A stretch of 64,000 nucleotides of DNA, from assembly GCA_020724525.1 (NCBI GenBank), contig DYGU01000004.1:35100-99099 (forward strand), read 5' to 3'. Below are positions 38,330-54,689 of this stretch, one piece after another (the first letter of the stretch is position 1; each line of letters starts with the position of its first letter). The stretch comes from Dehalococcoides mccartyi (GTDB lineage: Bacteria; Chloroflexota; Dehalococcoidia; GIF9; DYGU01). The notes under the pieces are model-generated. The model saw only the letters and a program-made list of their open reading frames with translations. It was not told the origin of the DNA and did no database searches. The position numbers and the translations under genes were made by a program.

Positions 38330-38431
38330 TTACCTGCGAATGTCAATTGCCAGATGTCTTGATCCCCTCTGAAGGTGGTGATAGAATACGCTTTGGTTTG
38401 TCTCCTGAATTAGGAAAAGGGGGAGTTTTTT

Positions 38432-39310: not shown

Positions 39311-39331
39311 TATTTTGATAAAGGAATAAAA

Positions 39332-40237
39332 ATGGAATATAGAGCACCCATTGAAACCTATGCGGGTAAGGTCCGAGAGGTGGTAATTGGTAAGGGGAGT
39401 AAAGCTATGAAGATTGGGGGGGAAAGTATTCTCCCTCTTCATTTTTTTGAGGGCTCTATTGAGAACCCCCCTCGACTTGTTTTAGAGGTCTATGATATGG
39501 AGCCAGACGATTGGGCAGGGGCAGTGCTTGAGCCTTATAAAGATGTTGTTTCCGACCCGGTAAAATGGGCACAGAAATGTTTAGATTTTGGTGCTGACCT
39601 TGTCTGCCTTAAGCTAATGAGTACTGACCCGGGCGGGGAAAATGCACCGGCAGAGGCAGTAGCAGCCCTTACCAAAAAAGTAGCCACCACCATTAACACC
39701 CCCCTCATTGTTTATGGCTCGGGGGATGAGACCAAAGACATTGAGGTGTTAACTAAGGTGGCTGAAGTCTGCGCTGGAGAAAACCTCCTCTTAGGTCCAG
39801 CGGTTAAGGAAAATTATGAGCCGATATGCAAAGCCGCTTTGGACTATGGGCATTGTCTTATTGCCCAGACCCCCATAGATATAAACTTGGAAAAGGAACT
39901 AAATATAAAACTGATGAAGTCCTTTCCACCGGAGAGAATAGTTATTGACCCCTTAAGCTCGGCTTTAGGCTATGGTATTGAATACAGCTTCAGCATAATG
40001 GAAAGGACCAAACACATTGGCATTATGTTTAAGGATGCCACCATGCAGATGCCTATAATCGCCGACCTGGGTAAGGAATCGTGGAAAACCAAAGAAGCTA
40101 AAGCCAGTGAAAAGCAGGGTATATTATGGGAAAGCATTGCGGCTTTAACTTTTCTTTTAGCCGGGGCTAATATTTTGGTCTTGCGTCACCCCGAAACCCT
40201 TAAGTTAATTAAGGAAGTAATTACGGGGAAAATTTGA
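39332..40237 (+). CDS. acsD: Corrinoid/iron-sulfur protein small subunit (AcsD / CdhD-like TIM barrel).
   Basis: 301 aa, adjacent to acsE. A degenerate partial copy of its 3' end recurs at 45682-45817. Confidence 0.75.
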   Translation: MEYRAPIETYAGKVREVVIGKGSKAMKIGGESILPLHFFEGSIENPPRLVLEVYDMEPDDWAGAVLEPYKDVVSDPVKWAQKCLDFGADLVCLKLMSTDPGGENAPAEAVAALTKKVATTINTPLIVYGSGDETKDIEVLTKVAEVCAGENLLLGPAVKENYEPICKAALDYGHCLIAQTPIDINLEKELNIKLMKSFPPERIVIDPLSSALGYGIEYSFSIMERTKHIGIMFKDATMQMPIIADLGKESWKTKEAKASEKQGILWESIAALTFLLAGANILVLRHPETLKLIKEVITGKI

Positions 40238-40319
40238 CCTTACATGAGACCGGTGGGCAAAATACTAAAAGCTTTGATATCTTTGCCCTCGCACGAGAAG
40301 TAGTAGCATCGGAGGGATT

Positions 40320-40796
40320 ATGGAAGACCACCTATCAGAGATTTTGCCATCCTATAGAGGAAAGAGAAGCAAACTGATTCCGATTCTACAAGAGGTTCAG
40401 GCAAAATTTGGCTACCTGCCCGAGGAGGTGATGCGTGAGCTTGCCACGTTTATCGGCATACCGGAGTGTGAGGCATATAGTGTAGCTACTTTTTATGCTC
40501 AATTCCGGCTCATGCCCCTTGGTAAGAAACGGGTTGCGATCTGCCGAGGCACTGCGTGTCACATCAGCGGTGCCCCCAAAATTCTCGAGGCGACAGAGAA
40601 GGTACTCGGCATAAAGGATGGGGAAACCACAGCTGACCTGGAATATACCCTGGAAACTGTTGCCTGTATTGGTTGCTGTGCGCTAGCCCCTTGTCTAAGG
40701 ATTAACGAGGATGTCCATGGTCGGCTGACGCCGGCAAAGGCAAGCGAACTTTTCCCCGCCCCAAGTACAAATAAAGGAGAGCAAGATGTCCAATAG
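40320..40796 (+). CDS. NuoE/HymA-like [2Fe-2S] thioredoxin-fold subunit.
   Basis: 158 aa with the Cys pattern CRGTACH...CIGCCALAP. Overlaps the next gene by 11 nt. Confidence 0.85.
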   Translation: MEDHLSEILPSYRGKRSKLIPILQEVQAKFGYLPEEVMRELATFIGIPECEAYSVATFYAQFRLMPLGKKRVAICRGTACHISGAPKILEATEKVLGIKDGETTADLEYTLETVACIGCCALAPCLRINEDVHGRLTPAKASELFPAPSTNKGEQDVQ

Positions 40797-42603
40797 GCAA
40801 TGCACTGTTTTAGTTTGCCAGGGGACAGGCTGTATTTCAGGGGGGGCCGAACCAATTTACTCTTCACTGGAAGGAGAGATAGCCAAGCCCGATCTGAGGG
40901 AAAACGTTCATCTCAAGCGTACTGGCTGTCATGGCTTTTGCCAACAAGGTCCTCTTGTCATTGTTGAGCCGGAAGGCTTTTTTTATTCAAAAGTTAAACC
41001 AGATGATGTACACGAAATTGTTCAATCACTTTTACCGGAAAGAAAGGTTGTAAAACGCCTCTTATACCGCGACCCTATTACCAATAAGCGTATACCTTAT
41101 TATCGTGATATCCCTTTCTATAGTAAACAACAACGCACGGTGCTTAGAAATTGTGGCAAAATCAACCCCGAGGATATTAATGACTATCTTGCTTCGAATG
41201 GCTATCAGGCGCTGCGGAAGGCTCTTTTTGAGCTCACCTCGGAGCAAATTATTGAGGAGGTGAAACACTCCGGACTTCGGGGACTGGGGGGAGCGGGCTT
41301 CCCTGCTGGACAGAAGTGGGAAGCCTGCCGTAGAGCGCCTGGTGAGGTAAAGTATGTGATCTGCAACGCTGATGAAGGTGACCCCGGGGCATTTCAGGAC
41401 CGCTCAGTTTTAGAGGGAGACCCTCATTCAGTTTTGGAGGGGATGATAATCGCTGGGTATGCTGTTGGTGCAAAACAGGGCTTTGTCTACGTGCGTGCCG
41501 AATATCCACTGGCGGTGAAGCGCCTTTACATTGCCACCGCCCAAGCGAGGGAAAGGGGATTTCTGGGCCGGAATATTTTGGGGAGCGGATTTGTTTTTGA
41601 TATAGAGATCTTCCAGGGAGCCGGAGCCTTCGTTTGTGGCGAGTCTACAGCGCTAGTCCTTTCCATTGAAGGCAAAAGGGGGATGCCGAAGTCTCTCCCT
41701 CGTCCCAGAACTACCGAGGTAGGGTTATGGGGTAAGCCAACTTTGCTTAATAATGTAAAGACCTTCGCCAATATCCCTCTGATTATTATTCATGGTTCAG
41801 AGTGGTTTGCCTCCAGAGGCACTGAGCGGAGTAAAGGCACGGCTATTTACTCACTGACGGGCAAGGTGGCAAACTGCGGTCTGATAGAAGTGCCTATGGG
41901 AATTAAGCTTCGAGAAATTGTCTATGGTATTGGAGGAGGACCTCCGGGAGGGAAGGCTTTCAAGGCGGTCCAAACCGGCGGACCCTCAGGTGGTTGTCTT
42001 CCGGCAGAGCTTTTGGATATGCCGATCGATTTTGACTCACTTACTGCCGCCGGCTCGATGATGGGCTCGGGAGGCGTAGTGGTGGTGGATGAAGATACCT
42101 GCATGGTTGATGTAGCCCGCTATTTTCTTGACTTCACCCAAAAAGAATCCTGCGGTCAATGTTTGCCATGTAGACTCGGCACGTACCAGATGCTTCAAAT
42201 ATTGGAAAGGATTACAAGGGGGGAGGGGGTACCCGGCGACATAGAGAGACTTGAGTGGATTGGACGGAGGGTCAAGGAGTATTCTCTTTGTGGACTTGGA
42301 ACGACTGCGCCAAATCCTGTGCTTAGTACTATTAAATATTTTCGTGAGGAATATGAAGAGCATATTTATAATAAATACTGCCGGGCAAAGGTCTGCGCCT
42401 TAGGCATGTTCCGGATTGAACCGGATGAATGTGTTCTCTGTGGCCTTTGCCAAGGGGTATGTGAAACTGGGGCGGTAAAGGAAATCAGGAATAAGTTTTT
42501 TATAGTCCAGGATTACTGCAACAAATGCAAGTCCTGCTATACTATCTGTCCTGTTGGGGCAGTAAGGGTGGAGAAATACTTACCTAAAGAGGTGACAAAG
42601 TGA
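40786..42603 (+). CDS. NuoF/HymB-like flavoprotein: N-terminal [2Fe-2S] domain, FMN/NAD(P)H domains, an N3-type [4Fe-4S], and two C-terminal ferredoxin motifs.
   Basis: GGAGFPAGQKWE and CNADEGDPGAF (FMN/NADH site); ESCGQCLPCRLGT-x39-C; C-terminal CVLCGLCQGVCETGAV and CNKCKSCYTICPVGAV. Confidence 0.85.
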   Translation: MSNRQCTVLVCQGTGCISGGAEPIYSSLEGEIAKPDLRENVHLKRTGCHGFCQQGPLVIVEPEGFFYSKVKPDDVHEIVQSLLPERKVVKRLLYRDPITNKRIPYYRDIPFYSKQQRTVLRNCGKINPEDINDYLASNGYQALRKALFELTSEQIIEEVKHSGLRGLGGAGFPAGQKWEACRRAPGEVKYVICNADEGDPGAFQDRSVLEGDPHSVLEGMIIAGYAVGAKQGFVYVRAEYPLAVKRLYIATAQARERGFLGRNILGSGFVFDIEIFQGAGAFVCGESTALVLSIEGKRGMPKSLPRPRTTEVGLWGKPTLLNNVKTFANIPLIIIHGSEWFASRGTERSKGTAIYSLTGKVANCGLIEVPMGIKLREIVYGIGGGPPGGKAFKAVQTGGPSGGCLPAELLDMPIDFDSLTAAGSMMGSGGVVVVDEDTCMVDVARYFLDFTQKESCGQCLPCRLGTYQMLQILERITRGEGVPGDIERLEWIGRRVKEYSLCGLGTTAPNPVLSTIKYFREEYEEHIYNKYCRAKVCALGMFRIEPDECVLCGLCQGVCETGAVKEIRNKFFIVQDYCNKCKSCYTICPVGAVRVEKYLPKEVTK

Positions 42604-43445
42604 TAAGGATGGAGGATGTAAAGGCAAAGGCAGAGGAGAGAAGGTGTCCACTGCAGAAAGCAATTGTCTTCATAGAGGAGTTTTTAAATGAACCACTGTG
42701 TGGAGAATGTCTTCCGTGCACACTTGGGAGTCAGGAACTTAAGATAAGGTTACAGAAGATTGCCGACGGTAAAGGAACTCAATTAGATATCGATGCTATA
42801 GATAAAATTACCGGACATATGCTTGAGATATCAAGATGTAGGAAAGGTATGGATACAGCGAGATTCATAATAGACTCTACAAAGGAAGGCTCATTTAAAG
42901 GACATCTTGAGGGGGTGTGTAATGAAAAAGAATGCCTGTCACTTATTATGTACCGGATTATACCTGAGAAGTGCGTAATGTGCGGCACTTGTCAAGATAT
43001 TTGTAAAGAGAATGCAATAATCGGGGAAAAGAAAAAGCCTTTAAGCTACCAGCCTATTCAGATAAATGCCAGGAAATGCAGAAGTGAAAGGGGTTGTAAT
43101 GAGTGCGTAAGAGTATGTCCTACAGGAGCAATAGAGGTGATAGAGGTAGAAGGTAGGTACTTGCCTTTTGAGATAAGTCAGAAGAGATGTACAAGATGTG
43201 ATGAATGTATAAAGGTGTGTCCTGTTTCAGGAGCAATAGGGGTAATAGAGATAGCTGGTTTAAGGGTAGTACCAATTGACTGGTTAGATATTTCAAAAGC
43301 AATAGGGGTAGCAGATATAGGCTTCCGACCTTTTGAGATAGTTCAGAAGAGATGCACCACCAAATGTGGTGAGTGTATAAAGGGATGTCCCTCAGGAGCA
43401 ATAGAGGTGGTAGATATAAAAGAGCAAGTAGCAGTTGGCAGTTAG
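42600..43445 (+). CDS. Polyferredoxin with an N-terminal NuoF-C-terminal-like [4Fe-4S] module and tandemly repeated [4Fe-4S] motifs.
   Basis: CGECLPCTLGS-x39-C reproduces the NuoF N3 cluster spacing. It is followed by CVMCGTCQDICKENA and a series of CxRCDECIKVCP / CTTKCGECIKGCP units. The 3' third contains an about 130 bp tandem DNA duplication (43140-43400). AT-rich, with AGA/ATA-biased codon usage. Confidence 0.7.
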   Translation: MIRMEDVKAKAEERRCPLQKAIVFIEEFLNEPLCGECLPCTLGSQELKIRLQKIADGKGTQLDIDAIDKITGHMLEISRCRKGMDTARFIIDSTKEGSFKGHLEGVCNEKECLSLIMYRIIPEKCVMCGTCQDICKENAIIGEKKKPLSYQPIQINARKCRSERGCNECVRVCPTGAIEVIEVEGRYLPFEISQKRCTRCDECIKVCPVSGAIGVIEIAGLRVVPIDWLDISKAIGVADIGFRPFEIVQKRCTTKCGECIKGCPSGAIEVVDIKEQVAVGS

Positions 43446-43468
43446 AACAAAAAGGATAAGGAGAGAAA

Positions 43469-45511
43469 ATGGCAGATTTGGTAACAGTAAAGATAGACGG
43501 CCGGCAAGTTAGTGTCCCGCCAGGGACTAATCTGATTGATGCCGCTGAGATAGCTGGCATTCATATACCAAACCTTTGTTATCTTAAGGGTATGAGGGGA
43601 GTAGGCGCATGCCGGCTCTGCCTTGTTGAGGTGGCGGGGGCAGAAAGGCTAATGGTAGCCTGCATGACAAGGGTTAGGGAAGGGATGAGTGTAATTACAA
43701 ATTCAGAGCGCGTGCTCGACGGCCGAAGATTTGTGATTGACATTATTATTTCTATGCATCCTCTTGATTGTATGACATGCACAAAGAGCGGTGTCTGCAA
43801 ACTCCAAAAATACGCTTATGATTTTGGGTTGAAGGAGTCGAGCTTTACCAGGAAGAGATTTGACTACCCAACTGATGAGGCAAATCCATTCATAAAGCGT
43901 GACCCTGATTACTGTATACTCTGTGGACGCTGTGTGCGAATGTGTAAGGCACAGGGCACCAGTGTGCTTGACTTTATGAGAAGGGGTATTAGTACAAAGG
44001 TTACTACAACCCGAGACAGACCACTTCACGAGTCAGGATGCACATTTTGTGGCAGCTGTGTTGATGTCTGTCCTACCAATGCCTTTGTCGAAGCCGGCAG
44101 ATGGGGAAAGGGTAGGGAGTGGGAATATGAGGATATAAGTTCTGTATGCCTTTACTGTGGTAACAGCTGTGATATAAATGTGAGCCGAAAAGACAACGAG
44201 ATCATAAAGATTAGTAGTAATGCCCCTGAGGACTCGGTTGAACACTATTTATGCGCTATCGGCAGATTTGGTTTTGACTATATCCACTCTCATACCAAGG
44301 TGATGTCTCCTATGAAAAGAGTAGATGGTAAACTTCAGGCGACAACATGGGAAGAGGCACTTGATATTGTTGCCGCTAAACTCAAAGATGCCGGCATGGA
44401 TGCCGGATTTGTCAGCACGGCAGACATCCTTAATGAAGATGCTTTAGTGTTAAGGAGATTTGCTAAGGATGTTGTTAAGACAAAAAACTTTGATACAACT
44501 GTAAGCCTTTATGCCGAAGCTGACTCTATGAGGCTTTCGGGTGTGGCTAATATGGATAAAGCAGACCTTATAGTAGTTGTTGGACTTAACCCATCTCAGT
44601 GGGAGAGGGTTCTTCCTGCCCTTGATGCCTCAATAAGAAAAAAGCTTGACAGGGGTGCAAAACTTATTGTCATAAATTCGGCTGAGACACGGCTTTCATC
44701 TGTAGCCGATATAACCCTCAGGGGAGAGGAGGTATCTAATCTCAAGGCAATTGTAAAGGCATTGATAGACAGGGGTTTTAAGGCTGACAAAGAAATAGAG
44801 GATGCCGTTTCAGGGGCAAAAATTTCCGAAGATATTGAAAATGCTGCAAAATTATATGCTGAGTCAAAGAGCCCATTAATCCTGGTAGCGCCATCCCTTT
44901 ATAATGCCTCAGCCAATATTGGACTTCTTAGTTCCTCCTCCCCACTCACTACCTCGTTGGTTGCAGTTCCAGCAGAGAGCAATGCCAGAGGTGTTGTTCT
45001 TATGGGGCTGACGACAAAAAACAAAACATACAGAGATATGATTTCAGGTGATATAAAGTTGCTATATGTACTCGGTGAGATACCTTTAGCGGAAAGACCA
45101 AATGTTGATTTCCTTATAGCACAGAGTTCACACTTTACCGAACTTTCAAAGCAAGCTGATATAGTCCTTCCAGCGTCAGCTGCCCTTGAGGCAGAGGGCA
45201 GTATTGTGGACTATCTTGGCAGACTGAAATATCTACGTAAAGCAGTTGCGCCGGCAGGCGAGGCTAAATTACATCGGGAGATATTTATGGAGCTTTCCAA
45301 GATAATGGGTTGTCCAATCGAGGTACCAAAAGAGACAGAGATTAAAGAGTCTTTAAGGATAGAGGTAAAACCCTCATTTAGTCCCTTTAAGAAAAAAGAG
45401 GGACTTGATTTTGGCTTTTACGAGATGATTGAACTAATAAATGCCTCAGTGATTGGTAGTTCAAGGTTATTGTGGCTTAAAGAGGCTAAGATACTTCAAA
45501 AGGTCAAATGA
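43469..45511 (+). CDS. NuoG / formate-dehydrogenase-alpha-like Fe-S subunit (680 aa). It lacks a full molybdopterin C-terminal domain.
   Basis: N-terminal plant-type [2Fe-2S] (CYLKGMRGVGACRLCLV...C), a His-ligated cluster HPLDCMTCTKSGVC, CILCGRCVRMC, CTFCGSCVDVCP, then a MopB-type CLYCGNSCD and a truncated molybdopterin-oxidoreductase-like region. Same AT-rich, AGA/ATA codon bias as the preceding gene. Confidence 0.7.
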   Translation: MADLVTVKIDGRQVSVPPGTNLIDAAEIAGIHIPNLCYLKGMRGVGACRLCLVEVAGAERLMVACMTRVREGMSVITNSERVLDGRRFVIDIIISMHPLDCMTCTKSGVCKLQKYAYDFGLKESSFTRKRFDYPTDEANPFIKRDPDYCILCGRCVRMCKAQGTSVLDFMRRGISTKVTTTRDRPLHESGCTFCGSCVDVCPTNAFVEAGRWGKGREWEYEDISSVCLYCGNSCDINVSRKDNEIIKISSNAPEDSVEHYLCAIGRFGFDYIHSHTKVMSPMKRVDGKLQATTWEEALDIVAAKLKDAGMDAGFVSTADILNEDALVLRRFAKDVVKTKNFDTTVSLYAEADSMRLSGVANMDKADLIVVVGLNPSQWERVLPALDASIRKKLDRGAKLIVINSAETRLSSVADITLRGEEVSNLKAIVKALIDRGFKADKEIEDAVSGAKISEDIENAAKLYAESKSPLILVAPSLYNASANIGLLSSSSPLTTSLVAVPAESNARGVVLMGLTTKNKTYRDMISGDIKLLYVLGEIPLAERPNVDFLIAQSSHFTELSKQADIVLPASAALEAEGSIVDYLGRLKYLRKAVAPAGEAKLHREIFMELSKIMGCPIEVPKETEIKESLRIEVKPSFSPFKKKEGLDFGFYEMIELINASVIGSSRLLWLKEAKILQKVK

Positions 45512-45681
45512 TACTGGTGGGGTTCCTAATAGGAGTATCCAACAGGATGCCACAAGAGTTTAGGTGGATTCTTATTGATGATGCTATCCAGGTATGGTCA
45601 ATTGGCTTGGATGGGGAGAGAAGCTTAAATAAGGGATAAATGCTTAGTATTGTTGACCTTGTCAAAGATAGCATGACACAC

Positions 45682-45817
45682 ATGCCTATAATTGCTGACC
45701 TGGGCGGGAATGCTGGAAAGCCAAAGAAGCCTTCTTTTAGTCGGGGCTAACATTTTAGTATTACGGCACCCAGATAACTACAAACTAATTAAGGAAGTGA
45801 TTCAGCAGAAATTTGAT
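45682..45817 (+). pseudogene. Vestigial duplicate of the acsD 3' end (non-coding remnant) immediately upstream of cdhA.
   Basis: CATGCCTATAATTGCTGACCTGGG...CCAAAGAAGC...CTAATTAAGGAAGTGATT...AAATTTGAT matches acsD 40046-40237 (ATGCCTATAATCGCCGACCTGGG...CTTAAGTTAATTAAGGAAGTAATTACGGGGAAAATTTGA). It carries an internal deletion and stop codons. Confidence 0.6.
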
Positions 45818-45854
45818 AAAAAATGAGAATGAATTGCTATAAGAATAAGATTAA

Positions 45855-48182
45855 ATGCCAGAGGAGGTATATAACGTGGTAGTAATAGTTAAGAAAAAGA
45901 CAAGGAAAGACGAGAAACTGGAAATTATACGAGCCGAGGACTTATGGGAACCAGTAGGCCCGACGCCAATGCCGGACCTTGCTGATTTGAGAAACTGGGA
46001 CATGAGACTGCTCAAAACCTATAAGCCTTTTTATGCCCCCTTCTGCGACTTATGCTGCTTTTGTACCTATGGCAAATGCGACCTTACTGGTGAACAAGGG
46101 GGTGCCTGTGGCATTGATATGCCCACTCAGCAAGGAAGGATAGTTCTTCTGGCTTGCTGTGGGGGGGTTGCGGCTCATGGTGCTCATGGCAGGCATATTA
46201 TTGACTATTTGATTGAGAAATATGGAGAAGATTATAAAATTGACCTGGGAACACAGGTAGCTGTAGAAGCACCAATAATCAGGACTGTTCTTGGTCTTAA
46301 ACCAGAGACTCTGGGAGATTTAAAGAAAGCTATAGAGTATGTGGAACGAGGGCTCATTCATCTTGTTTCCTCACTACACACCGGTCAGGAGGGGAGTGAT
46401 TTAGATTACGAATCAAAAGCTCTCCACGCCGGGATGCTTGACCATGTCGCCCTGGAGGTTACTGATATTGCCCAGATTGTCGGCTTCAGCTTTCCCACAT
46501 CTATTGCTGATACTCCTTTGGTGGATTTCGGTTGGGGAGTAGTAGACAAAACTAAGCCGGTAATTTTATGTATTGGGCATAATCCAGCTACAGCCACTTC
46601 CATTATTGATTACTTGAACCAGAACAATTTGCAAGATGAAGTTGAGGTCTGTGGAATATGTTGCACTGCCCTTGAGGTAACCAGATATTCAAAAGCAGCC
46701 AAAGTTATCGGTCCTCTATCCCGGCAGCTTTTCTTTGTGAGGAGCGGTGTGGCTGATGTCATTGTTACTGAGGAACAGTGTATAAGAGCTGATACTTCCC
46801 TTGAAGCCAAGAAGGCAGGTTCGGCTCTAATTGCTGCCTCGGACAAAGCTTGTTACGGACTTGATAATGTCACTGAAAAGGAAGCCGATGAGATTGTTAA
46901 GGAGATGGTGGAGGTAGGAAAGCAAGTATTGATACTTGTCCCGGAGAAGGCAGCTGAGGTGGCGGTAAAGGTAGCTATAAAAATTGCTCGACAAAGGGAA
47001 AAAGAACTTATTGAGGCATCTCAGGTTCCTGAACTTGTCCAGGAATGTCATAATTGCCGTATTTGTGACCGGAACTGCCCTAACCTTTTGCCTGTAGGTG
47101 AAGCGGTGGAGCAAGCTGGTAAAGGCAACTTGGAAAAGTTAATTGAGGTGTTTAATAAGTGCCTTGGCTGTGGCAAGTGTGAGCAAGACTGCCCTCGTAA
47201 TATTCCTATTTTAAAGCTGATGCAGGCGGTTGCCAGCGGGGAAACTTTTAAGCTCAGGAGCGGGCGTGGACCCATCCATGATGTGGAAATAAGAAAGGTT
47301 GGCGCCCCTATTGTCTTAGGGACTATACCTGGAGTTGTTGCCTTTGTTGGTTGCTCTAACTTCCCTGAGGAAATAGATGAAGTGGCTGAGATGATGGAGG
47401 AGTTTGCCCGGAGGAAGTATATTGTAGTAGCTTCAGGCTGCGCTGCCATGGCGGCGGCGACGAAGAAAGATGCCGAAGGAAAAACTATTTATGAGAAGTA
47501 CCCCCCCGATTTCGATGCTGGCGGTGTTTTGAATGTGGGCTCCTGTGTGGCTAATTCTCATATTGCAGGAGCGGCTATAAAAATAGCCAACATTTTTGCC
47601 GCTCTGCCATTGAGAGCTAATTACGAGGTCATTGCTGACTATATTCTTAACCGGGTTGGGGCTTGTGGGGTTGCCTGGGGGGCTTATTCCTGGAAAGCAG
47701 CGGCAATTGCCACCGGCTGTAATAGATGGGGAATTCCAGTAGTTGTTGGTCCTCACTCTTCCAAATACCGGAGGCTCTATCTCAGTCGGAAAGAGGAAGA
47801 TGACTGGACAGTGATGGATGGCAGGACAAGGCAGTTAGTGGATACTCAGGAGCCATCTCCAGAGCATTTAATCAATGTAGTTGAGTCTAAAGAACGAGCT
47901 ATAGTCACTATAGCCAAGCTATGCATCCGGAAAAATGATACCCCTCAGGGGAGGCAGATAAAGCTTAACCATTACATTGCTCTTCATAAGCAATATCTGG
48001 GAACTCTACCCGATGATCTTCACCTCTTTATCCGACGAACTACTGACATTCCCATTTTCTTCAAAAAGGAGGTTATGGAATATCTCCAAAAAGTTGGCTG
48101 GAAAGAAAAGCCAGTATTGACTTTACCAACTCTGATCGGGACTTACCCTTCTAAGGTGCCTCTGGAGGCTGTTATCCATTAA
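45855..48182 (+). CDS. cdhA: CO dehydrogenase catalytic subunit, archaeal CdhA type (ACDS alpha).
   Basis: N-terminus GPTPMPDLADLRNWDMRLLKTYKPFYAPFCDLCCFCTYGKCDLTGEQGGACGIDM...AAHGAHGRHIIDYLIEKYGED closely follows archaeal CdhA. Mid-protein has two ferredoxin-type motifs (CHNCRICDRNCP, CLGCGKCEQDCP) characteristic of CdhA. Confidence 0.85.
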   Translation: MPEEVYNVVVIVKKKTRKDEKLEIIRAEDLWEPVGPTPMPDLADLRNWDMRLLKTYKPFYAPFCDLCCFCTYGKCDLTGEQGGACGIDMPTQQGRIVLLACCGGVAAHGAHGRHIIDYLIEKYGEDYKIDLGTQVAVEAPIIRTVLGLKPETLGDLKKAIEYVERGLIHLVSSLHTGQEGSDLDYESKALHAGMLDHVALEVTDIAQIVGFSFPTSIADTPLVDFGWGVVDKTKPVILCIGHNPATATSIIDYLNQNNLQDEVEVCGICCTALEVTRYSKAAKVIGPLSRQLFFVRSGVADVIVTEEQCIRADTSLEAKKAGSALIAASDKACYGLDNVTEKEADEIVKEMVEVGKQVLILVPEKAAEVAVKVAIKIARQREKELIEASQVPELVQECHNCRICDRNCPNLLPVGEAVEQAGKGNLEKLIEVFNKCLGCGKCEQDCPRNIPILKLMQAVASGETFKLRSGRGPIHDVEIRKVGAPIVLGTIPGVVAFVGCSNFPEEIDEVAEMMEEFARRKYIVVASGCAAMAAATKKDAEGKTIYEKYPPDFDAGGVLNVGSCVANSHIAGAAIKIANIFAALPLRANYEVIADYILNRVGACGVAWGAYSWKAAAIATGCNRWGIPVVVGPHSSKYRRLYLSRKEEDDWTVMDGRTRQLVDTQEPSPEHLINVVESKERAIVTIAKLCIRKNDTPQGRQIKLNHYIALHKQYLGTLPDDLHLFIRRTTDIPIFFKKEVMEYLQKVGWKEKPVLTLPTLIGTYPSKVPLEAVIH

Positions 48183-48199
48183 AAGGAGGTTTAAGTAAT

Positions 48200-48745
48200 A
48201 TGAGTATACCTTATCACTATGTCAATGTCCCTACTGGATTTAAGACCGCTCGCATTATAGAAGATGCCAGTGAATATGCCCACTTAATCAAAAGAGCCAG
48301 AAGACCCTTATTGCTCTTAGGACCGCTGACACTGAGGATATCCCTTAATGGCAGGCTACTTATGGAGTATGGTGTGGATATAGCTAAAGCAGCTAACATC
48401 CCGGTATGTGCCACTGCCCATACTAAGAAGAAATTGCTCGAACTAGGAGTAACTCCAGAAAGCACCTATGACATAATAGAAATCATTAATCATCTCAAGG
48501 ATAAGGAATGGCGAGGAGTTAAAAAAGAAGGTAATCACGACCTGGTGATGTTCCTGGGTTTCAGGACTGATTTAGGCCAGCAGGGACTGTCAACACTGAA
48601 GCATTTTGCTCCCCACCTCAGGACTATGACTTTATGTAAGTATTATTATCCCAATGCTGCTTACTCTCTTCCTAATCTAAAAGATGATAAATGGGGAGAA
48701 TTTCTGGAAAATCTAATAGCAAATCTAAAGGAAAAGGGGGTATAA
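48200..48745 (+). CDS. cdhB: ACDS epsilon subunit (CdhB).
   Basis: 181 aa. ARRPLLLLG and AANIPVCATA segments match CdhB (AKRPLLMVG, AANIPIAATG). It lies immediately after cdhA. Confidence 0.7.
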   Translation: MSIPYHYVNVPTGFKTARIIEDASEYAHLIKRARRPLLLLGPLTLRISLNGRLLMEYGVDIAKAANIPVCATAHTKKKLLELGVTPESTYDIIEIINHLKDKEWRGVKKEGNHDLVMFLGFRTDLGQQGLSTLKHFAPHLRTMTLCKYYYPNAAYSLPNLKDDKWGEFLENLIANLKEKGV

Positions 48746-48748
48746 AAA

Positions 48749-49975
48749 ATGGCAGGAATGTTTCCAGTAGATGTTGGACCCCAGTATGAAGGGGAAGCCA
48801 TCAGAAAAGCTGATTTTTATGTAGAGTTCGGTGGACCTGATGTAAAAAGTAAATTTGAACTGGTAACCCTAAAGACCATGAATGAGGTAGAGCATGAAAA
48901 GATTGAGGTAGTTGGACCGGATATACCGGAACTGACGGAGGGAGGCAGCTATCCTTTAGGCATTCTTATTGATGTTGCCGGTTCTGAGATAGAAAAAGAA
49001 ATGGAGCCTGTTTTTGAAAGAAGGATACATCTTTATGCTAACTATATCGAAGGCTTCTGGCACATGGCGCAGAGGAATGATATTTGGATGAGATTACATA
49101 AAAACTCCTATAAAAAGGGGCTCAACTCCTTAAAGGAAATTGGTAAAATCCTTATTTTCCTTTATACCTCTGAGATACCTATTATTGAGAAAATTAGCAC
49201 CACCTTCATTACTGATGAAAAGAAAGTGGAGGAGTTTTTGCCTAAGGCTCTGGAGGTCTATAAAGCCAGGGATGAGCGGCTTAAGGGTATAAGAGAAGAG
49301 GATGTGGAGGAATTTTATAGCTGTTCCTTGTGTCAGAGTTTTGCCCCGACTCATATTTGTATTGCTACTCCAGAGAGAGTTGCCAATTGTGGAGCTATAA
49401 ACTGGTTTGATGGCAGAGCTGCCTATAAGCTTGACCCTGAGGGTCCGGTACAAGAAGTGAAAAAGGGTGAGTGCTTAGACCCGATACGGGGTGAGTATAG
49501 CGGCTGTAACGAACTGGCTGTGGTCAAGTCCTTGAGGTCTTATGACCGGGTTTACCTCCATAGTGCCTTTGAACATCCCCATACTTCCTGTGGTTGCTTT
49601 CAGGCTATCTGCTTTTATATTCCGGAAGCGGATGCCTTTGGCATTGTTCATCGGGACTTTGTTGGCAATACGGTAATGGATGTCCCCTTCTCTACTATGG
49701 CTGGTCAAACGAGTGGCGGCAGACAGGTGGAGGGCTCTTTAGGCATAGCGCTGGAGTATTTACGGTCACCAAAATTCCTCCAAGCTGATGGCGGTTTATA
49801 CCGTGTAGTTTGGATGCCAAAGGAAATAAAGGAAAGATATAAAGAGGCTACTCCCCAGGACTTGTATGATAAGATAGCTACTGAAGAGGATGTCACTAAT
49901 GCTGACGAGCTTGTGGACTTTCTTAAGCGGGTTGGGCATCCATGGGTGAAGGGTGAAGTGGAACTTCCTGTCTAA
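48749..49975 (+). CDS. cdhC: Acetyl-CoA synthase, short archaeal-type CdhC/AcsB (A-cluster subunit).
   Basis: 408 aa with the A-cluster ligands CSLCQSF...C and a SCGCF Ni-binding motif (HTSCGCFQAICFY). Confidence 0.85.
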   Translation: MAGMFPVDVGPQYEGEAIRKADFYVEFGGPDVKSKFELVTLKTMNEVEHEKIEVVGPDIPELTEGGSYPLGILIDVAGSEIEKEMEPVFERRIHLYANYIEGFWHMAQRNDIWMRLHKNSYKKGLNSLKEIGKILIFLYTSEIPIIEKISTTFITDEKKVEEFLPKALEVYKARDERLKGIREEDVEEFYSCSLCQSFAPTHICIATPERVANCGAINWFDGRAAYKLDPEGPVQEVKKGECLDPIRGEYSGCNELAVVKSLRSYDRVYLHSAFEHPHTSCGCFQAICFYIPEADAFGIVHRDFVGNTVMDVPFSTMAGQTSGGRQVEGSLGIALEYLRSPKFLQADGGLYRVVWMPKEIKERYKEATPQDLYDKIATEEDVTNADELVDFLKRVGHPWVKGEVELPV

Positions 49976-49997
49976 AGACTAAATTAGGAGGTTTGTC

Positions 49998-51365
49998 ATG
50001 CCACTTAAAGGGACTGATATTGTCAAAAAGCTTCCTGAATCGGGCAAAAAGAACTGTAAGGAATGTGGTTTCCCTACCTGCTTTGCCTTTGCTATGAAGT
50101 TAGCCTCAGGGGGGACTACTGTGGACAAGTGTCCCTATCTTTCCCCAGAGGTCAAGGCTGAATTAGAAGATGCCTTAGCTCCTCCGATACGGTTGGTTAC
50201 CATTGGTCGTGGTGAAAATAGCCTTCAGATTGGTAATGAAGAAGTAATTTACAGGCATGAGAAGACCTTTATCCATAAACCTGGCATTGCCTTTCTTATT
50301 TCTGACATAGAGAGCGAGGCTAAGGTTGAGGAAAAGGTGGAGAAGCTTAGGGGACTCCAGTTTCCGCGGGTAGGGCTAACCCTTAAAGCTGACCTGCTGG
50401 CTTTAAGGAATGAATCAGGGGAAAAATCTAAGTTTGAAGCTTTAGTAAGGAGAGTTTACCAGAATACTGATGCTCCCCTTATATTAATTTCTGAGGATAC
50501 AGATGCCCTGTTTTTGGCTCGGGACATATGTGCCGATAGGTCACCCCTTGTTTATCCCATAACTAAAGAAAATATCGATGAGGCAATTCCGAAAATAAAG
50601 GAGAAGCCAACTCCGGTGGGAGTGCGGGGACAAAATATTGAAGACCTTATTTTCCTTACCACTAAATTGAAAGACGCCGGAATTGGAGATATAGTTTTAG
50701 ACCCTGGCTCCAGATGCTTTCAGCAAGCTATAGCTGATCAGACTCTAATTCGCCGCGCCGCTTTAAAGCAGAATTTTAGACCTTTGGGCTATCCTACTAT
50801 TGGCTTTCCTTGTTTCATGGCTAAAGATAACTTGAGGGAGTTCCTTGTTGCGGCTATGTTTATTATTAAATACGCTGGGATTATTGTCCTTTCCGATACC
50901 GACAAGGAATCGTTACTGCCCCTATTAGTCCAAAGACTTAGTATCTACACTGACCCCCGGATACCTATGTCTGTTGAAGACAAAGTATATGAAATCCTCG
51001 AAGCTACTGAAGAATCGCCTGTACTCCTGACTGCTAATTGGGCATTGACCTATTTTATCGTTTCCGGGGAAATTGAAGGTAGTAAGGTTTCGTCTTGGCT
51101 GTGCGTTAAGAATACGGAAGGGCTGGGGGTGCTTACTGCCTGGGCAGCCGGTAAGTTTTCCGGTGATACTATAGGTCCCTTTATCAGGAAATGTGGCATT
51201 GAAGGTAAGGTGAAACATCGCCGGCTAATTATTCCGGGGAAAGTAGCCCGGATTAAAGGCGAGCTGGAAGAGGCATTGCCTGGCTGGGAAATTATTGTTG
51301 GACCTCGGGAAGCCGCTGAAATCCCAGCCTTTTTGCCAACCCTTGTGCGGCAGTGGCAGAACTAA
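49998..51365 (+). CDS. acsC: Corrinoid/iron-sulfur protein large subunit (AcsC / CdhE).
   Basis: N-terminal [4Fe-4S] motif CKECGFPTCFAFAMKLASGGTTVDKCPY, followed by TIM-barrel and B12-binding regions. Confidence 0.85.
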   Translation: MPLKGTDIVKKLPESGKKNCKECGFPTCFAFAMKLASGGTTVDKCPYLSPEVKAELEDALAPPIRLVTIGRGENSLQIGNEEVIYRHEKTFIHKPGIAFLISDIESEAKVEEKVEKLRGLQFPRVGLTLKADLLALRNESGEKSKFEALVRRVYQNTDAPLILISEDTDALFLARDICADRSPLVYPITKENIDEAIPKIKEKPTPVGVRGQNIEDLIFLTTKLKDAGIGDIVLDPGSRCFQQAIADQTLIRRAALKQNFRPLGYPTIGFPCFMAKDNLREFLVAAMFIIKYAGIIVLSDTDKESLLPLLVQRLSIYTDPRIPMSVEDKVYEILEATEESPVLLTANWALTYFIVSGEIEGSKVSSWLCVKNTEGLGVLTAWAAGKFSGDTIGPFIRKCGIEGKVKHRRLIIPGKVARIKGELEEALPGWEIIVGPREAAEIPAFLPTLVRQWQN

Positions 51366-51835
51366 AAGAGCGTCTTCAGAGGCTCCTAACTGAAGAAAAA
51401 AGGGACAAACGACACTTAATTTCCCTCCTTCAGGAAATTCAACAGGAGTTTAGTTATCTTCCTCGGGAAGTGATGTTGGAAATTGCCTGGTTCCTGGGAG
51501 TATCTCCGAGCACTGTTTATAGTGTAACTACTTTCTTTAATCAATTCCGCTTTACCCCGGTGGGAAAGCATCCCATAAGAATCTGTCTGGGAACAGCTTG
51601 TCATCTGGCTGGGGGTAAGTTAGTCCTGGAAACTGTGGAAAGGGAGCTTGATATTAAAGTTGGTGGTGTAACTGCTGATGGTCAATTTGGTTTGGAGAGG
51701 GTGGCTTGCATTGGCTGCTGTGCTCTGGCTCCGGTAATGACCATTAATGGTGACGTTTACTCCAGGCTGACTCCGCTAAAGATGGAAGAGGTGTTGACTT
51801 TGCTTAAGTCTGGTGGTGAGTCTGAAAGAAAGTGA
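51353..51835 (+). CDS. NuoE-like [2Fe-2S] subunit (second copy).
   Basis: 160 aa with CLGTACH...CIGCCALAP. Host-like codon usage. Overlaps acsC by 13 nt. Confidence 0.85.
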   Translation: MAELKERLQRLLTEEKRDKRHLISLLQEIQQEFSYLPREVMLEIAWFLGVSPSTVYSVTTFFNQFRFTPVGKHPIRICLGTACHLAGGKLVLETVERELDIKVGGVTADGQFGLERVACIGCCALAPVMTINGDVYSRLTPLKMEEVLTLLKSGGESERK

Positions 51836-53721
51836 CCTTCAAAGAAATTCAGAAACTGGCAAGAGCTGAGTGGGACTCTCTCTATTATGGGGAAATTCCT
51901 CTTATCCTTGTGGGTACTGCGACCTGCGGTCGGGCTGCTGGCGCCTTGGCTGTGGTTGAGGCTTTTGAAAAAGAAATAGTCCGGCGGAAGGCTGCTGCCA
52001 GAGTTATCCAGGTTGGCTGTATGGGGCTTTGTTATACTGAACCCCTGGTCACTATAATCAAACCTAAATCCTTTCGGGTTTGCTACAAAAATATTACCCC
52101 GGACTTGGTACCTCGGCTTGTAGAAGGCTATATTTTGGGTGATGACCCTTGTTTGGAGCTTGCTTTGGGCACCTTAGCCGGGGGTAATGGTGAAGCTATC
52201 TCCATTCCTGAACTGTCTCGGTTTGAAAAGGAGCCTCGCCTCATTATGCGCCGCTGCGGCTATATTAACCCTGAAGATATAAAACACTATGTTGCCAGCG
52301 GTGGGTATAGTAGCTTGGTTCGGGCTTTACAAATGCCCGCCCGGGAAATAATTAGTCAGCTAAAAAGGTCGGGGTTAAGAGGGATGGGCGGCGCCGGTTT
52401 CCCCACCGGAGAAAAATGGGAACTTTGTCAAAAAGCTAAAGGTAAGCCTAAATATGTGATATGCAATGCTGATGAAGGTGACCCCGGCGCTTTTATGGAC
52501 CGGGTTGTCCTGGAAAGTGACCCCCACCAGGTTTTAGAAGGCATGATTATCGCCGGTTATGCTTTGGGTAGTTCTCAAGGCTATATTTATATTCGAGCCG
52601 AATACCCTTTAGCTATTAAGCGTTTGAAGATTGCCCTTGACCAGGCTCAAGAATATGGTTTTTTAGGTAAAAACATATTAGGCACTGTTTTTAGTTTTTA
52701 CATAGAATTAGAATCAGGAGCTGGGGCTTTTGTCTCTGGTGAGGCGACGGCGCTGATGCGTGCCATCGAAGGCAAGCGGAGCATACCGAGGGCAAGACCA
52801 CCACATTCGGTAGAGGCTGGCTTGTGGGGGAAGCCAACTTTACTTAATAATGTAAAAACTTTTGTTTTTGTTCCTCTCATAATAGCCCGCGGCGCTGACT
52901 GGTTTTCTACTATAGGCACCGAAAGAAGTAAGGGGACAGCCATTTTCGCTTTAGCTGGTAAGATAACCAATACCGGCTTAGTTGAAGTGCCTATGGGAAC
53001 GACTTTGCGTGAGCTAATTTTTGATATTGGTGGTGGTATTCGGCAGGGTAAGCTTTTCAAAGGAATACAAATTGGAGGTCCCTCAGGAGGTTGCTTGCCG
53101 GCGAGTCTCCTGGAAACTCCCGTTGACTTTGATTCTTTGTCTAAAGCCGGAGCCATGATGGGTTCCGGTGGGCTAATTGTCATGGATGAGGACAATTGTA
53201 TGGTAGATACGGCTCGCTTCTTCCTTGATTTTACCCAGAAAGAGTCCTGTGGCAAATGCACCACCTGCCGTATAGGTACTAAACAAATGCTGGATGTATT
53301 GGAAGATATTGTTGCCGGAAGAGGCAAAATAGAAGATATGGATTTGCTTGTTGAGTTGGGTGAAGATATCAGGGATGGCTCCCTTTGTGGCTTAGGCAGA
53401 ACGGCTTCCAACCCGGTGCTGACTACTATCCGCTATTTTCATGATGAATATGAGGCTCATATTCTCGAAAAACGCTGCCCGGCTCTGGTTTGTAAAGAGC
53501 TTATTGCCTATTATATTATTCCGGAAAAATGTGAGAAAGGCTGTGAACATTGTGTTCTCAATTGCCCGGTAAAAGCCATTTCCAGCGATGAAAGGAGACT
53601 GAAAATTATTGACCAGACGAAGTGTACTAAATGTGGCACTTGCCTGGAGGTATGTCCCGCTGAGTATAATGCTGTGGTAAAATTATCACCTCCTACTTTA
53701 GTGCCAATGAAGGAGGGTTAA
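51832..53721 (+). CDS. NuoF-like flavoprotein (second copy), with N-terminal thioredoxin-like domain and C-terminal ferredoxin motifs.
   Basis: GGAGFPTGEKWE, CNADEGDPGAF, ESCGKCTTCRIGT-x39-C, C-terminal CEKGCEHCVLNCP and CTKCGTCLEVCP. About 65% identical by eye to the 40786 copy across the core. Confidence 0.85.
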   Translation: MTFKEIQKLARAEWDSLYYGEIPLILVGTATCGRAAGALAVVEAFEKEIVRRKAAARVIQVGCMGLCYTEPLVTIIKPKSFRVCYKNITPDLVPRLVEGYILGDDPCLELALGTLAGGNGEAISIPELSRFEKEPRLIMRRCGYINPEDIKHYVASGGYSSLVRALQMPAREIISQLKRSGLRGMGGAGFPTGEKWELCQKAKGKPKYVICNADEGDPGAFMDRVVLESDPHQVLEGMIIAGYALGSSQGYIYIRAEYPLAIKRLKIALDQAQEYGFLGKNILGTVFSFYIELESGAGAFVSGEATALMRAIEGKRSIPRARPPHSVEAGLWGKPTLLNNVKTFVFVPLIIARGADWFSTIGTERSKGTAIFALAGKITNTGLVEVPMGTTLRELIFDIGGGIRQGKLFKGIQIGGPSGGCLPASLLETPVDFDSLSKAGAMMGSGGLIVMDEDNCMVDTARFFLDFTQKESCGKCTTCRIGTKQMLDVLEDIVAGRGKIEDMDLLVELGEDIRDGSLCGLGRTASNPVLTTIRYFHDEYEAHILEKRCPALVCKELIAYYIIPEKCEKGCEHCVLNCPVKAISSDERRLKIIDQTKCTKCGTCLEVCPAEYNAVVKLSPPTLVPMKEG

Positions 53722-53839
53722 AAATCCCCATGACAGATATCGTCTAAACCAAGACTTTTGCCTGCAGCAATAAACTGTCATGGGGTCCCCATTATGGCTT
53801 ATTGCTGGGGACATATGTAAAAGGTAGACGCTATCCATA

Positions 53840-54616: not shown

Positions 54617-54689
54617 CTATTAGTTTGGAGACGATTGGTGTCCTTTATATAAGGGAAACTAATCCGGATAAAAATCTTCCCGAAATTTG

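Follow-up and report, generated by a model that had tools for sequence, protein, structure and literature searches.

A CO dehydrogenase/acetyl-CoA synthase (CODH/ACS) operon in a 64 kb stretch of Dehalococcoides mccartyi DNA (contig DYGU01000004.1 of assembly GCA_020724525.1; hereafter the window) contains genes for two NuoE-NuoF flavoprotein pairs, a NuoG-like protein and a poly-iron-sulfur (poly-Fe-S) protein. We estimate the chances to be about even that this operon specifies a CODH/ACS together with an NAD(P)H/ferredoxin bifurcation module of the Bfu family that has no catalytic domain of its own, as a variant of the predicted 'Codh-Bfu'. The two are read as coupled because a module with an NAD(P)H site, a ferredoxin-type exit and Fe-S chains consistently accompanies only CODH/ACS. 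Observed in the sequences are gene content, cofactor motifs, subunit families, synteny, the insertion, purifying selection and the change at the nucleotide site; from these we infer that the module associates physically with CODH/ACS, that it bifurcates, which way its electrons flow and that it uses NADP(H). The operon spans positions 38432-54616 of the plus strand and consists of 13 tightly spaced or overlapping genes, for which searches against Pfam, NCBIfam and PDB sequences gave the order AcsE-CdhD-NuoE1-NuoF1-FeS-NuoG-like-CdhA-CdhB-CdhC-CdhE-NuoE2-NuoF2-CooC-like. An initial annotation had described two NuoEF pairs and a NuoG-like protein bracketing CODH/ACS at 40320-53721. The open reading frames (ORFs) are indeed found at these positions with strong Pfam support, but the operon is longer than this range, as it also includes AcsE (from 38432) and CdhD (from 39332) on the upstream side and the CooC-like gene (53840-54616) on the downstream side. 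The module was also listed incompletely, as the poly-Fe-S gene of 281 amino acids at 42600-43445 had been left out.

The hardware of the proposed coupling has two parts, a native BfuC/BfuB pair (NuoE2/NuoF2) and a four-gene cassette (the first four entries below).

40320 to 40796, plus strand: NuoE1, a BfuC/HydC-type [2Fe-2S] subunit of the cassette (Pfam 2Fe-2S_thioredx, 1.5e-49).
40786 to 42603, plus strand: NuoF1, the cassette's BfuB/HydB-type subunit for FMN and NAD(P)H (Complex1_51K, 6.8e-44; NADH_4Fe-4S, 1.2e-32).
42600 to 43445, plus strand: the 281 amino acid poly-Fe-S subunit, which is paralogous to the C-terminal third of BfuB and has extra [4Fe-4S] units (homology to 7t2r_B).
43469 to 45511, plus strand: the 680 amino acid NuoG/NDUFS1-like, pterin-less FdhA-like subunit of the BfuA type (Pfam matches without PF01568).
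51353 to 51835, plus strand: NuoE2, the native BfuC-type subunit (Pfam 2Fe-2S_thioredx, PF01257, 6.5e-48).
51832 to 53721, plus strand: NuoF2, the native BfuB-type FMN and NAD(P)H subunit (739 bits to 9bov_B).

NuoF1 and NuoF2 can be assigned to BfuB/HydB, that is, to the bifurcating kind of flavoprotein. Both are of the long Bfu type (605 and 629 amino acids) and not of the complex I type, and the non-bifurcating NuoF, FdsB and Nqo1 align only with their central 400 residues. Three features set BfuB apart from its non-bifurcating homologues (PMC9304861): a thioredoxin-like site at the N-terminus, a 3Cys+His site across the N3 motif, and a 2x[4Fe-4S] domain at the C-terminus. All three were found in both proteins. 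In NuoF1, the N-terminal thioredoxin-like 2Fe-2S part has Cys 11/16/48/52, the residues of site B2 are kept (C439, T, H, C532 and C537) and the C-terminal domain shows CxxCxxCxxxC at residues 549 and 578. In NuoF2, C456, H543, C549 and C554 as well as C567-578 and C598-608 are invariant in four genomes. The best solved relative of NuoF1 is the NiFe-HydB/BfuB of A. mobile HydABCSL (7t2r_B; 808 bits end to end, about 60% identity) and that of NuoF2 is C. saccharolyticus NfnB. These full-length HydB/NfnB matches (808 and 739 bits) and the extra metal sites bear out the earlier view that the NuoEF pairs are of the bifurcating-enzyme type. NuoE1 and NuoE2 both match PF01257 with four Cys each (75, 80, 116 and 120 in NuoE1), as in the [2Fe-2S] subunit BfuC, and the nuoE1 gene overlaps nuoF1 by 11 bp. 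The NCBIfam NuoF models and most NuoE models score under their cut-offs.

The 281 amino acid protein is related to the same flavoprotein, with its residues 13-178 aligning to residues 435-594 of 7t2r_B (E value 1.6e-18). The aligned stretch of BfuB holds its N3-type cluster, Cys/His site and di-cluster domain. The protein contains 23 Cys in B1-like, B2-like and four ferredoxin-type motifs, and its terminal cluster unit is triplicated in the window and in a second lineage (locus L088) relative to a 200 amino acid form found in Nitrospirota. At some related loci, the poly-Fe-S protein is fused to the C-terminus of BfuB to give one protein of about 900 amino acids, and it is for this reason that we consider it a subunit of the module.

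The 680 amino acid protein matches Fer2_4, NADH-G_4Fe-4S_3, Fer4, Molybdop_Fe4S4 and Molybdopterin (PF00384, residues 280-611, E value 3.7e-29) in Pfam. It has five Fe-S motifs (C37/48/51/65, H97/C101/104/110, C149/152/155/159, C191/194/197/201 and C227/230/234/262), invariant in 14 homologues, that correspond to one [2Fe-2S], one His-ligated [4Fe-4S], two ferredoxin-type [4Fe-4S] and one MopB-type [4Fe-4S] cluster. The initial annotation had seen the MopB Cys motif, which is indeed retained (Molybdop_Fe4S4, C227/230/234/262), and had called the protein Mo-domain-less. This description is imprecise, as a degenerate MopB core (PF00384) is kept beside the MopB [4Fe-4S] motif; the parts that have been lost are Molydop_binding and the Cys/Sec-His motif. 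By Pfam, Molydop_binding (PF01568, the C-terminal dinucleotide-binding domain IV) is absent from the 680 amino acid protein and from all 120 homologues listed (667-693 amino acids). The Cys/Sec-His Mo-ligand motif is absent as well: FdsA 'CARVCHSPTG' aligns to 'TTVSL' and a gap of 6 residues, and the family consensus at this site, 'DTTxSLYADAD', has no Cys. We considered a Molydop_binding remnant hidden by readthrough or a frameshift in the 343 bp after the gene, and rejected it; many stops and a remnant of cdhD lie there instead. A promoter/terminator scan of 37-56 kb found no terminator in this gap, and its counts overall were no different from those in shuffled sequence.

Because the protein is without Molydop_binding and without the Cys/Sec-His motif, it is judged not to be a formate dehydrogenase, in agreement with the initial annotation; no full Mo-bisPGD domain was found in it. 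With five intact Fe-S motifs and no active site, it can therefore only carry electrons, and it is best described as an electron-carrying scaffold. Among solved structures, the top match is to the Fdh-like domain in NfnA of C. saccharolyticus (9bov_A, 254 bits), in an alignment that skips NfnA residues 103-563, and Pfam detected neither Pyr_redox nor Fer4_20, hence no GltD-like FAD/NADPH domain, in the 680 amino acid protein. An end-to-end alignment was obtained with mitochondrial NDUFS1 (residues 3-660, 201 bits), and the NCBIfam NuoG model scores 340 bits against a cut-off of 470 bits. The C-terminus carries 'GSRLLWLKE' (residues 664-672, window 45458-45490), which is invariant or nearly so in 14 homologues that are otherwise about 60% identical, and which could be a docking motif.

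In an alternative reading, the NuoE, NuoF and NuoG-like proteins would act as diaphorase and scaffold for a pterin enzyme, such as a formate dehydrogenase, whose catalytic subunit is encoded elsewhere, as HylABC does for FdhF2; that enzyme would supply the methyl branch. The pathway does require a formate dehydrogenase, and none is encoded in the window. A cdh operon of Chloroflexi type in a related genome (locus L172) has, directly after NuoE-NuoF, an 850 amino acid NuoG-MopB protein with Molydop_binding (16888-19440), which matches FdsA over its full length with 531 bits; at the Mo-ligand position it has Cys-Gln and not the Cys/Sec-His of formate dehydrogenases. The 680 amino acid protein clearly descends from a protein of this kind (30% identity over 677 residues). 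The Cys-Gln of the L172 protein speaks against the alternative, as do the facts that no pterin catalytic gene was found in the 64 kb window or beside the module at 80 Nitrospirota loci and that the pterin-less form is the conserved one, with no PF01568 among the 120 homologues listed. The recurring neighbour of the module is a CODH instead. We regard a pterin-enzyme scaffold as improbable. Beyond the initial annotation, then, stand the full MopB protein of L172, which keeps this alternative alive, the separate histories of the two NuoEF pairs, and the fact that Codh-Bfu has already been proposed (PMC9304861).

The partner enzyme for which we argue is encoded by the following genes of the operon.

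38432 to 39310, plus strand: AcsE-like methyltetrahydrofolate:corrinoid/Fe-S protein methyltransferase, the first gene of the operon (Pfam Pterin_bind, 1.6e-20).
39332 to 40237, plus strand: CdhD/AcsD, the small (delta) subunit of the corrinoid Fe-S protein (Pfam CdhD, 3.4e-46; NCBIfam NF003376, 369 bits, cut-off 280).
45855 to 48182, plus strand: CdhA, a CODH alpha subunit of archaeal type that contains a ferredoxin-like 2x[4Fe-4S] insert (Pfam Prismane, 9.6e-63; 859 bits to the ACDS alpha chain 8riu_A).
48200 to 48745, plus strand: CdhB, the epsilon subunit (Pfam CO_dh, 1.1e-30).
48749 to 49975, plus strand: CdhC, a short archaeal-type acetyl-CoA synthase beta subunit (Pfam CdhC, 1e-60; ACS_CODH_B_C, 3.5e-80).
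49998 to 51365, plus strand: CdhE/AcsC, the large (gamma) subunit of the corrinoid Fe-S protein (Pfam FeS and CdhD; NCBIfam NF003195, 568 bits, cut-off 306).
53840 to 54616, plus strand: CooC/AcsF-like P-loop ATPase, a putative Ni-insertion chaperone and the last gene of the operon (Pfam CbiA/AAA_31).

The Pfam, NCBIfam and PDB matches identify, at the family level, archaeal-type alpha, epsilon and short beta subunits together with both corrinoid-protein subunits and a methyltetrahydrofolate methyltransferase. The operon is thus best classed as a 'hybrid' bacterial CODH/ACS, in which archaeal-type CdhAB and CdhC are combined with a bacterial-type corrinoid protein and methyltransferase. CdhA shares 72-82% identity with its Chloroflexi/Dehalococcoidia counterparts, and the JGI gene call places its start at 45876. 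The AcsE-like protein scores 224 bits with NCBIfam NF005719, under the cut-off of 259 bits, and is 85% identical to its orthologue in locus L086. The CooC-like ATPase is a putative Ni-insertion chaperone by family and position, and that position is unchanged in all relatives (L086, L087, L091, L172 and L173). CODH/ACS is the sole catalytic partner in the operon, as had been annotated: no hydrogenase, formate dehydrogenase or MetF gene was detected among the ORFs scanned across the window, and no hydrogenase or formate dehydrogenase gene lies immediately beyond the cluster. Likewise, none of the ORFs scanned was a nuo membrane or Q-module gene.

The two NuoEF pairs evidently differ in origin, with NuoE2-NuoF2 native to the operon and the NuoE1-NuoF1 cassette horizontally acquired. 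Five related genomes (L086, L087, L091, L172 and L173) have the order AcsE-CdhD-CdhA-CdhB-CdhC-CdhE-NuoE-NuoF-(...)-CooC. Since all five keep this pair in place, NuoE2/NuoF2 is considered native to Dehalococcoidia cdh operons. In five of six operons of Dehalococcoidia type (the window, where the overlap is 13 bp, L086, L087, L091 and L173), nuoE and the end of cdhE share 10-13 bp, the two genes being 37 bp apart in L172; NuoE2/NuoF2 would thus be translationally coupled to cdhE. The cassette is missing from L086, L087, L091, L172 and L173 and is present in L088-L090. In the closest relative, L091 (GCA_042408205.1, GyrB 87% identical), cdhD and cdhA are 22 bp apart and both flanks are identical, as in an empty site; in blastn it is colinear with the window over 36578-40237 and resumes at 45890. 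Two features define the insertion.

40238 to 45889, plus strand: the inserted cassette, NuoE1-NuoF1-FeS-NuoG-like with a scar, 5.6 kb between cdhD and cdhA.
45658 to 45816, plus strand: a degraded second copy of the cdhD 3' end, with frameshift, comprising the last 60 codons or so of that gene (blastx, 20/28 and 13/28 residues in two frames).

The cdhD fragment lies inside the 343 bp gap after the 680 amino acid gene and shows 77-83% nucleotide identity to 40046-40237 in blastn. It is best explained as a recombination scar at the right edge of the insertion. Base composition gave no trace of transfer, the GC content being 0.453 in the insertion and 0.454 in the rest of the operon. An independent Logan assembly (L002) has the identical gene order and the junction from the NuoG-like gene to CdhA is also present on three contigs from other sequencing runs (L088-L090), so the arrangement is not an assembly artefact. 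These three contigs represent a second lineage in which the cassette is likewise followed by CdhA. The cassette proteins of the two lineages are 76-88% identical over aligned residues, with 61% for the poly-Fe-S protein when alignment gaps are counted. The dS of the cassette genes between the window and L088 is 0.43-0.61, against 1.5 for the adjacent N-terminus of CdhA (about 214 codons only), which hints at lateral spread between the two lineages after their divergence.

The dN/dS between the two lineages is 0.15-0.29 for all four inserted genes. This, together with the presence of the cassette in a second lineage, indicates that it is real and under purifying selection. The low ratio is also the first of several objections to the idea that the cassette is a non-functional passenger from a recombination accident, which would account for the degraded gene fragment at its edge and for an unusual Met-to-Gln change in NuoF1 (see below). 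None of the four ORFs is broken, no metal ligand has been lost and the gene overlaps within the cassette are preserved, and we find such a passenger hardly conceivable. That the module was inserted precisely into the operon of an unrelated Cdh-type CODH/ACS, with cdhD before it and cdhA after it, favours a functional link.

As the cassette directly follows cdhD and NuoE2 overlaps cdhE, both flavoprotein pairs adjoin genes of the corrinoid protein. It could therefore be asked whether the module re-reduces the inactive Co(II) form of the corrinoid Fe-S protein (AcsC/AcsD) as an ATP-independent substitute for RACo. Bifurcation can reach potentials near -500 mV, and no RACo-like protein was detected among the window ORFs scanned, although RACo may lie beyond the window. 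Reactivation is an occasional repair with no need of two flavoprotein cores, however, and neither the Nitrospirota module, which follows CooS and not AcsC/AcsD, nor a paralogue linked to pyruvate:ferredoxin oxidoreductase (POR), which has no corrinoid protein nearby, would fit this role. We consider it very improbable.

Beyond the two lineages, the nearest relatives of all four cassette genes are found in the same order in Thermodesulfovibrionia (Nitrospirota), at 46-64% identity. The order at 80 species-level Nitrospirota loci is AcsE-AcsD-AcsC-AcsB-CooS-NuoE-NuoF(-NuoF)-FeS-NuoG-like. A CODH gene was beside the module at 47 of the 51 species-level Thermodesulfovibrionia loci with at least 5.5 kb of upstream sequence, the module coming directly after AcsB-CooS. 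As a control, we used arbitrary metagenomic BfuB loci, which were metagenome matches to NuoF2 and mostly generic BfuB at about 50% identity; CODH/ACS neighbours occurred at only 2 of 80. Fisher's test for this difference gives a p value of about 3e-28, which is overstated because the loci are related. The 47 loci beside a CODH gene indicate that the module travels with bacterial-type CODH/ACS. Unlike this CooS-type setting in Nitrospirota, the module in the window sits inside an archaeal-type (Cdh) operon. Two BfuB genes were present at 11 Nitrospirota loci, so the two-flavoprotein design is not unique to the window. The hosts of the module, Chloroflexota and Nitrospirota, span hundreds of species. 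At some Nitrospirota loci, tblastn matches longer than 2.0 kb were considered as gene inserts and rejected; in L018 there was an extra weak match in the upstream Fe-S gene instead.

Three of the four exceptions among the 51 loci are a paralogous copy with a BfuB-FeS fusion and a NuoG-like protein. This paralogous module (L065, 7258-15954; L042, 2843-10658; L039, 5738-8422) consists of a BfuB-FeS fusion of about 900 amino acids followed by a 673 amino acid NuoG-like protein, with a NuoE gene seen in L065 only. In L065 and L042 it adjoins genes for the gamma, alpha and beta subunits of a pyruvate/2-oxoacid:ferredoxin oxidoreductase, while L039 ends short of this region. At least two genomes have it as a second copy in addition to the CODH-linked one.

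The nucleotide site of the CODH-linked flavoproteins has a signature of its own. In NADH-bound NfnB, both Lys-164 and Glu-274 hydrogen-bond the adenine ribose (PMC11829005). By alignment with NuoF2, NfnB Glu-274 is the second Glu of 'CGEETAL'. Glu was present at this position in 75 of 79 control BfuB copies, with Ser or Ala in the other 4, versus none of 55 single-BfuB Nitrospirota loci (44 Ser, 11 Ala). NuoF1 reads 'GES' (Ser) and NuoF2 'GEA' (Ala). Canonical 'GEE' copies occur in Nitrospirota only as the extra gene of two-BfuB loci, and at 6 of these 11 loci one copy is 'GEE' and the other 'GES'. The Glu-274 position presumably corresponds to Glu183 of E. coli NuoF, whose replacement reportedly raises NADPH use up to about 200-fold, in 2011 work by Morina et al. 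Because the adenine-ribose Glu is replaced by Ser or Ala, the signature predicts that CODH-linked BfuB, including NuoF1 and NuoF2, accept NADP(H). The hedged 'NAD(P)H' of the initial annotation was apt in view of the Ser in NuoF1 and the Ala in NuoF2.

A pair of 'GEE' and 'GES' copies at 6 of 11 two-BfuB loci is what would be expected of one NADH and one NADPH site. It thus fits a stand-alone redox balancer, either an Nfn-like transhydrogenase or an NAD(P)H:ferredoxin oxidoreductase, that is co-transcribed with Wood-Ljungdahl genes and reaches CODH/ACS only via free ferredoxin. The best solved match of the 680 amino acid protein is the Fdh-like domain of the NfnA/StnA bifurcating transhydrogenases, NfnAB-like genes flank the module at about 9 Nitrospirota loci, and the paralogous module stands beside POR, another ferredoxin enzyme. 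On the other hand, the GltD-like NADPH/FAD domain is missing from the 680 amino acid protein, and with the single BfuB of most loci such an enzyme would have no third substrate. The tight adjacency to CODH and the insertion within the cdh operon also exceed what co-regulation needs. We hold a stand-alone balancer to be doubtful, though it deserves to be taken seriously.

Coupling of the module to CODH/ACS, which we favour, could proceed as follows. In the flavoproteins, FMN would be the site for NAD(P)H and the C-terminal di-cluster domain the site for ferredoxin, and the NuoG-like and poly-Fe-S chains would link these proteins to the Fe-S clusters of CdhA. The port facing CODH could be either the NuoG-like chain or the extension that the poly-Fe-S protein gives to the ferredoxin-side domain. 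Working reductively, the module would merge electrons of NAD(P)H with those of reduced ferredoxin to reduce CO2 to enzyme-bound CO for acetyl-CoA synthesis. In the oxidative direction, the oxidation of acetyl-CoA or CO would reduce NAD(P)+ and ferredoxin together. The overall acetyl-CoA couple reportedly lies near -200 mV in Thauer's tables, so the overall energetics allow a pyridine-nucleotide share. The NAD(P)H/ferredoxin-coupled CODH of the initial annotation is supported in part: the 47/51 versus 2/80 loci and the insertion between cdhD and cdhA favour a functional link, and the coupling itself, physical or kinetic, is a prediction.

Several observations weigh against this coupling. Adjacency at the same site is synteny, which proves no contact. 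The E0' of CO/CO2 (-520 mV) lies below ferredoxin, such that bifurcation is not obviously needed, a point raised in PMC9304861; the reply given there is that at very low CO activity the effective potential shifts to the mid range. Occurrence of the module with two kinds of CODH (CooS and CdhA), and of its paralogue with POR, fits a diffusible ferredoxin as well as docking. There is also the full MopB protein after NuoE-NuoF in L172. The Bfu flavin-site signature consists of Ala202 and Met204 of A. mobile BfuB ('GAFMD', PMC9304861), and NuoF1 reads AFQDR (in 'DEGDPGAFQDR') with Gln in place of the signature Met. AFMDR is present in NuoF2 and in 76 of 77 Nitrospirota copies. Finally, an AlphaFold2 model of the 680 amino acid protein was too poor to use (mean predicted local distance difference test score 53, predicted template modelling score 0.32); it was built on an alignment of 14 sequences, the available homologues all being at least 59% identical. 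The Met-to-Gln change in the acquired BfuB is common to both Dehalococcoidia-type lineages, the window and L088.

By sequence criteria, the module belongs to the Bfu/HydABC family (Schut et al. 2022, PMC9304861; A. mobile NiFe-HydABCSL, 7T2R, and the HydABC of T. maritima and T. kivui), with which it shares BfuC, a multi-cluster NuoG-like BfuA and a BfuB with FMN, an N3-type [4Fe-4S] cluster, the 3Cys+His site, the thioredoxin-like N-terminal site and the 2x[4Fe-4S] C-terminal domain. In contrast to the solved Bfu enzymes, it has no catalytic domain or subunit of the hydrogenase, pterin or flavin kind, an extra subunit derived from the C-terminus of BfuB, two BfuBC cores in the window, and Ser or Ala in place of the Glu of the nucleotide site. 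The predicted Codh-Bfu of Acetohalobium arabaticum and Clostridium cellulovorans, which is uncharacterised, has CooS and Fe-S genes between bfuB and bfuA (PMC9304861). It comprises 4 sequences, from Firmicutes only, with a monofunctional CooS, a Type 2 BfuA without two of the clusters and a BfuB of clade 49 (PMC9304861). A best match to a clade-49 member was obtained here. The likeness lies in BfuABC genes in one cluster with a Ni-CODH and no other catalytic partner, where CO/CO2 would be the third substrate beside NAD(H) and ferredoxin. The differences are a complete CODH/ACS as partner (of two types when Nitrospirota are included), hosts in Chloroflexota and Nitrospirota, the BfuB-derived Fe-S subunit, a BfuA with five cluster motifs and a pterin-less Fdh relic, and the non-canonical nucleotide site.

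The Nfn-Bfu/StnABC enzymes (C. saccharolyticus NfnABC, 9BOV; S. ovata StnABC, 8OH5) likewise have a pterin-less Fdh-like domain, and NuoF2 is nearest to NfnB. The large subunit NfnA (9BOV) ends in this domain, which has an incomplete pterin site and shows no pterin density (PMC11829005). NfnA and StnA, at about 1175 amino acids, contain an inserted GltD-like FAD/NADPH domain, whereas the 680 amino acid protein has none. With the NAD-dependent formate dehydrogenase FdsABG (6TG9, 9WXB) and the bifurcating HylABC-FdhF2, the module shares the NuoE/NuoF partners, and the NuoG-like N-terminal domain and first MopB half can be aligned (residues 5-405); it differs in having no Cys/Sec-His motif and no domain IV, and FdsB is without the extra Bfu sites of NuoF1 and NuoF2. 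The N-module of complex I (NuoE, NuoF and NuoG/NDUFS1) resembles the 680 amino acid protein in its pterin-less MopB-like architecture and differs from the module described here, which has a long Bfu-type NuoF and comes without membrane or Q-module genes.

A link between Ni-CODH and pyridine nucleotides has been proposed for CooS-CooF-FNOR, where FNOR belongs to an unrelated flavoprotein family that is not bifurcating by design and the partner is a monofunctional CODH. In these clusters a CODH is found with an FAD-dependent NAD(P) oxidoreductase (cited in PMC6344411). Hybrid bacterial CODH/ACS, with CdhAB and CdhC beside AcsC, AcsD and AcsE, has the same subunit mix as the window (PMC9751293), and its descriptions do not treat NuoE/NuoF as part of the system. 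Genome papers have merely remarked on nuoEF or NuoEFG-like COGs near CODH/ACS (PMC6305446, PMC6344411, PMC3971608). In the literature searched we found no characterised bifurcating or pyridine-nucleotide-linked CODH/ACS, only the Bfu proposal (PMC9304861).

The operon is preceded by genes of fatty-acid beta-oxidation (enoyl-CoA hydratase and 3-hydroxyacyl-CoA dehydrogenase) and followed by MutL and UvrD. Between CooC and MutL, both L091 (18809-20660) and L086 (19336-21197) have a gene of the DUF3786 family and one that resembles ADP-forming acetyl-CoA synthetase (CoA_binding/Succ_CoA_lig); neither is present at window 54617-54689, where mutL directly follows CooC. Host markers are in line with Dehalococcoidia: GyrB shares 75-89% identity with proteins labelled as Dehalococcoidia or Chloroflexi, and the MazG-Fmt-DnaA-...-GyrB backbone is common to the window and a 1.39 Mb contig that bears the same type of operon. 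The DnaA gene (8401-9756) is located at the minimum of the cumulative GC skew (about 8000-10000) with GyrB nearby (11578-13512), and this part of the window is probably the chromosomal replication origin region. The DnaA-GyrB-cdh neighbourhood recurs in L087 and L173.

Elsewhere in the window, a gene for an Eco57I/N6_Mtase/TaqI_C-type DNA methyltransferase of 485 amino acids was found on the minus strand (3429-4886), with an adjoining 142 amino acid ORF that has no Pfam match. A 565 amino acid ORF (22264-23961, plus strand) and the 165 amino acid ORF that overlaps it (21815-22312, plus strand) match no Pfam family at an E value of 1e-5 or better. A HEAT-repeat protein gene (35056-36006) lies between the PAC2 and GNAT genes and is missing at that place in the otherwise colinear L091. 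The sole Rfam match at the gathering threshold is a single tRNA gene (6341-6414).

A more far-reaching form of the proposed coupling may be put forward tentatively, though we would sooner bet against it than for it. CODH/ACS would not depend on ferredoxin alone but would form the catalytic end of a bifurcating supercomplex, hard-wired and linked to NADP(H), in which one or two flavoprotein cores are wired by the poly-Fe-S protein and a pterin-less FdhA relic, and the module would be portable from CooS-type to Cdh-type enzymes by horizontal transfer. To our knowledge, every biochemically studied CODH/ACS exchanges electrons through ferredoxin, and the enzyme described here would be the first pyridine-nucleotide-coupled acetyl-CoA synthase/decarbonylase. 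The system offers itself for testing, with a four-gene cassette in hundreds of species, a natural transplant between types of CODH and a single-residue prediction of NADPH use (Glu to Ser or Ala). The source of low-potential electrons in bacteria that have the Wood-Ljungdahl pathway and are not acetogens, such as Dehalococcoidia and Thermodesulfovibrionia, bears on the energetics of subsurface life. If the proposal is true, the ferredoxin demand of the carbonyl branch would be halved and, in the reverse direction, acetyl-CoA oxidation would feed NAD(P)H directly.

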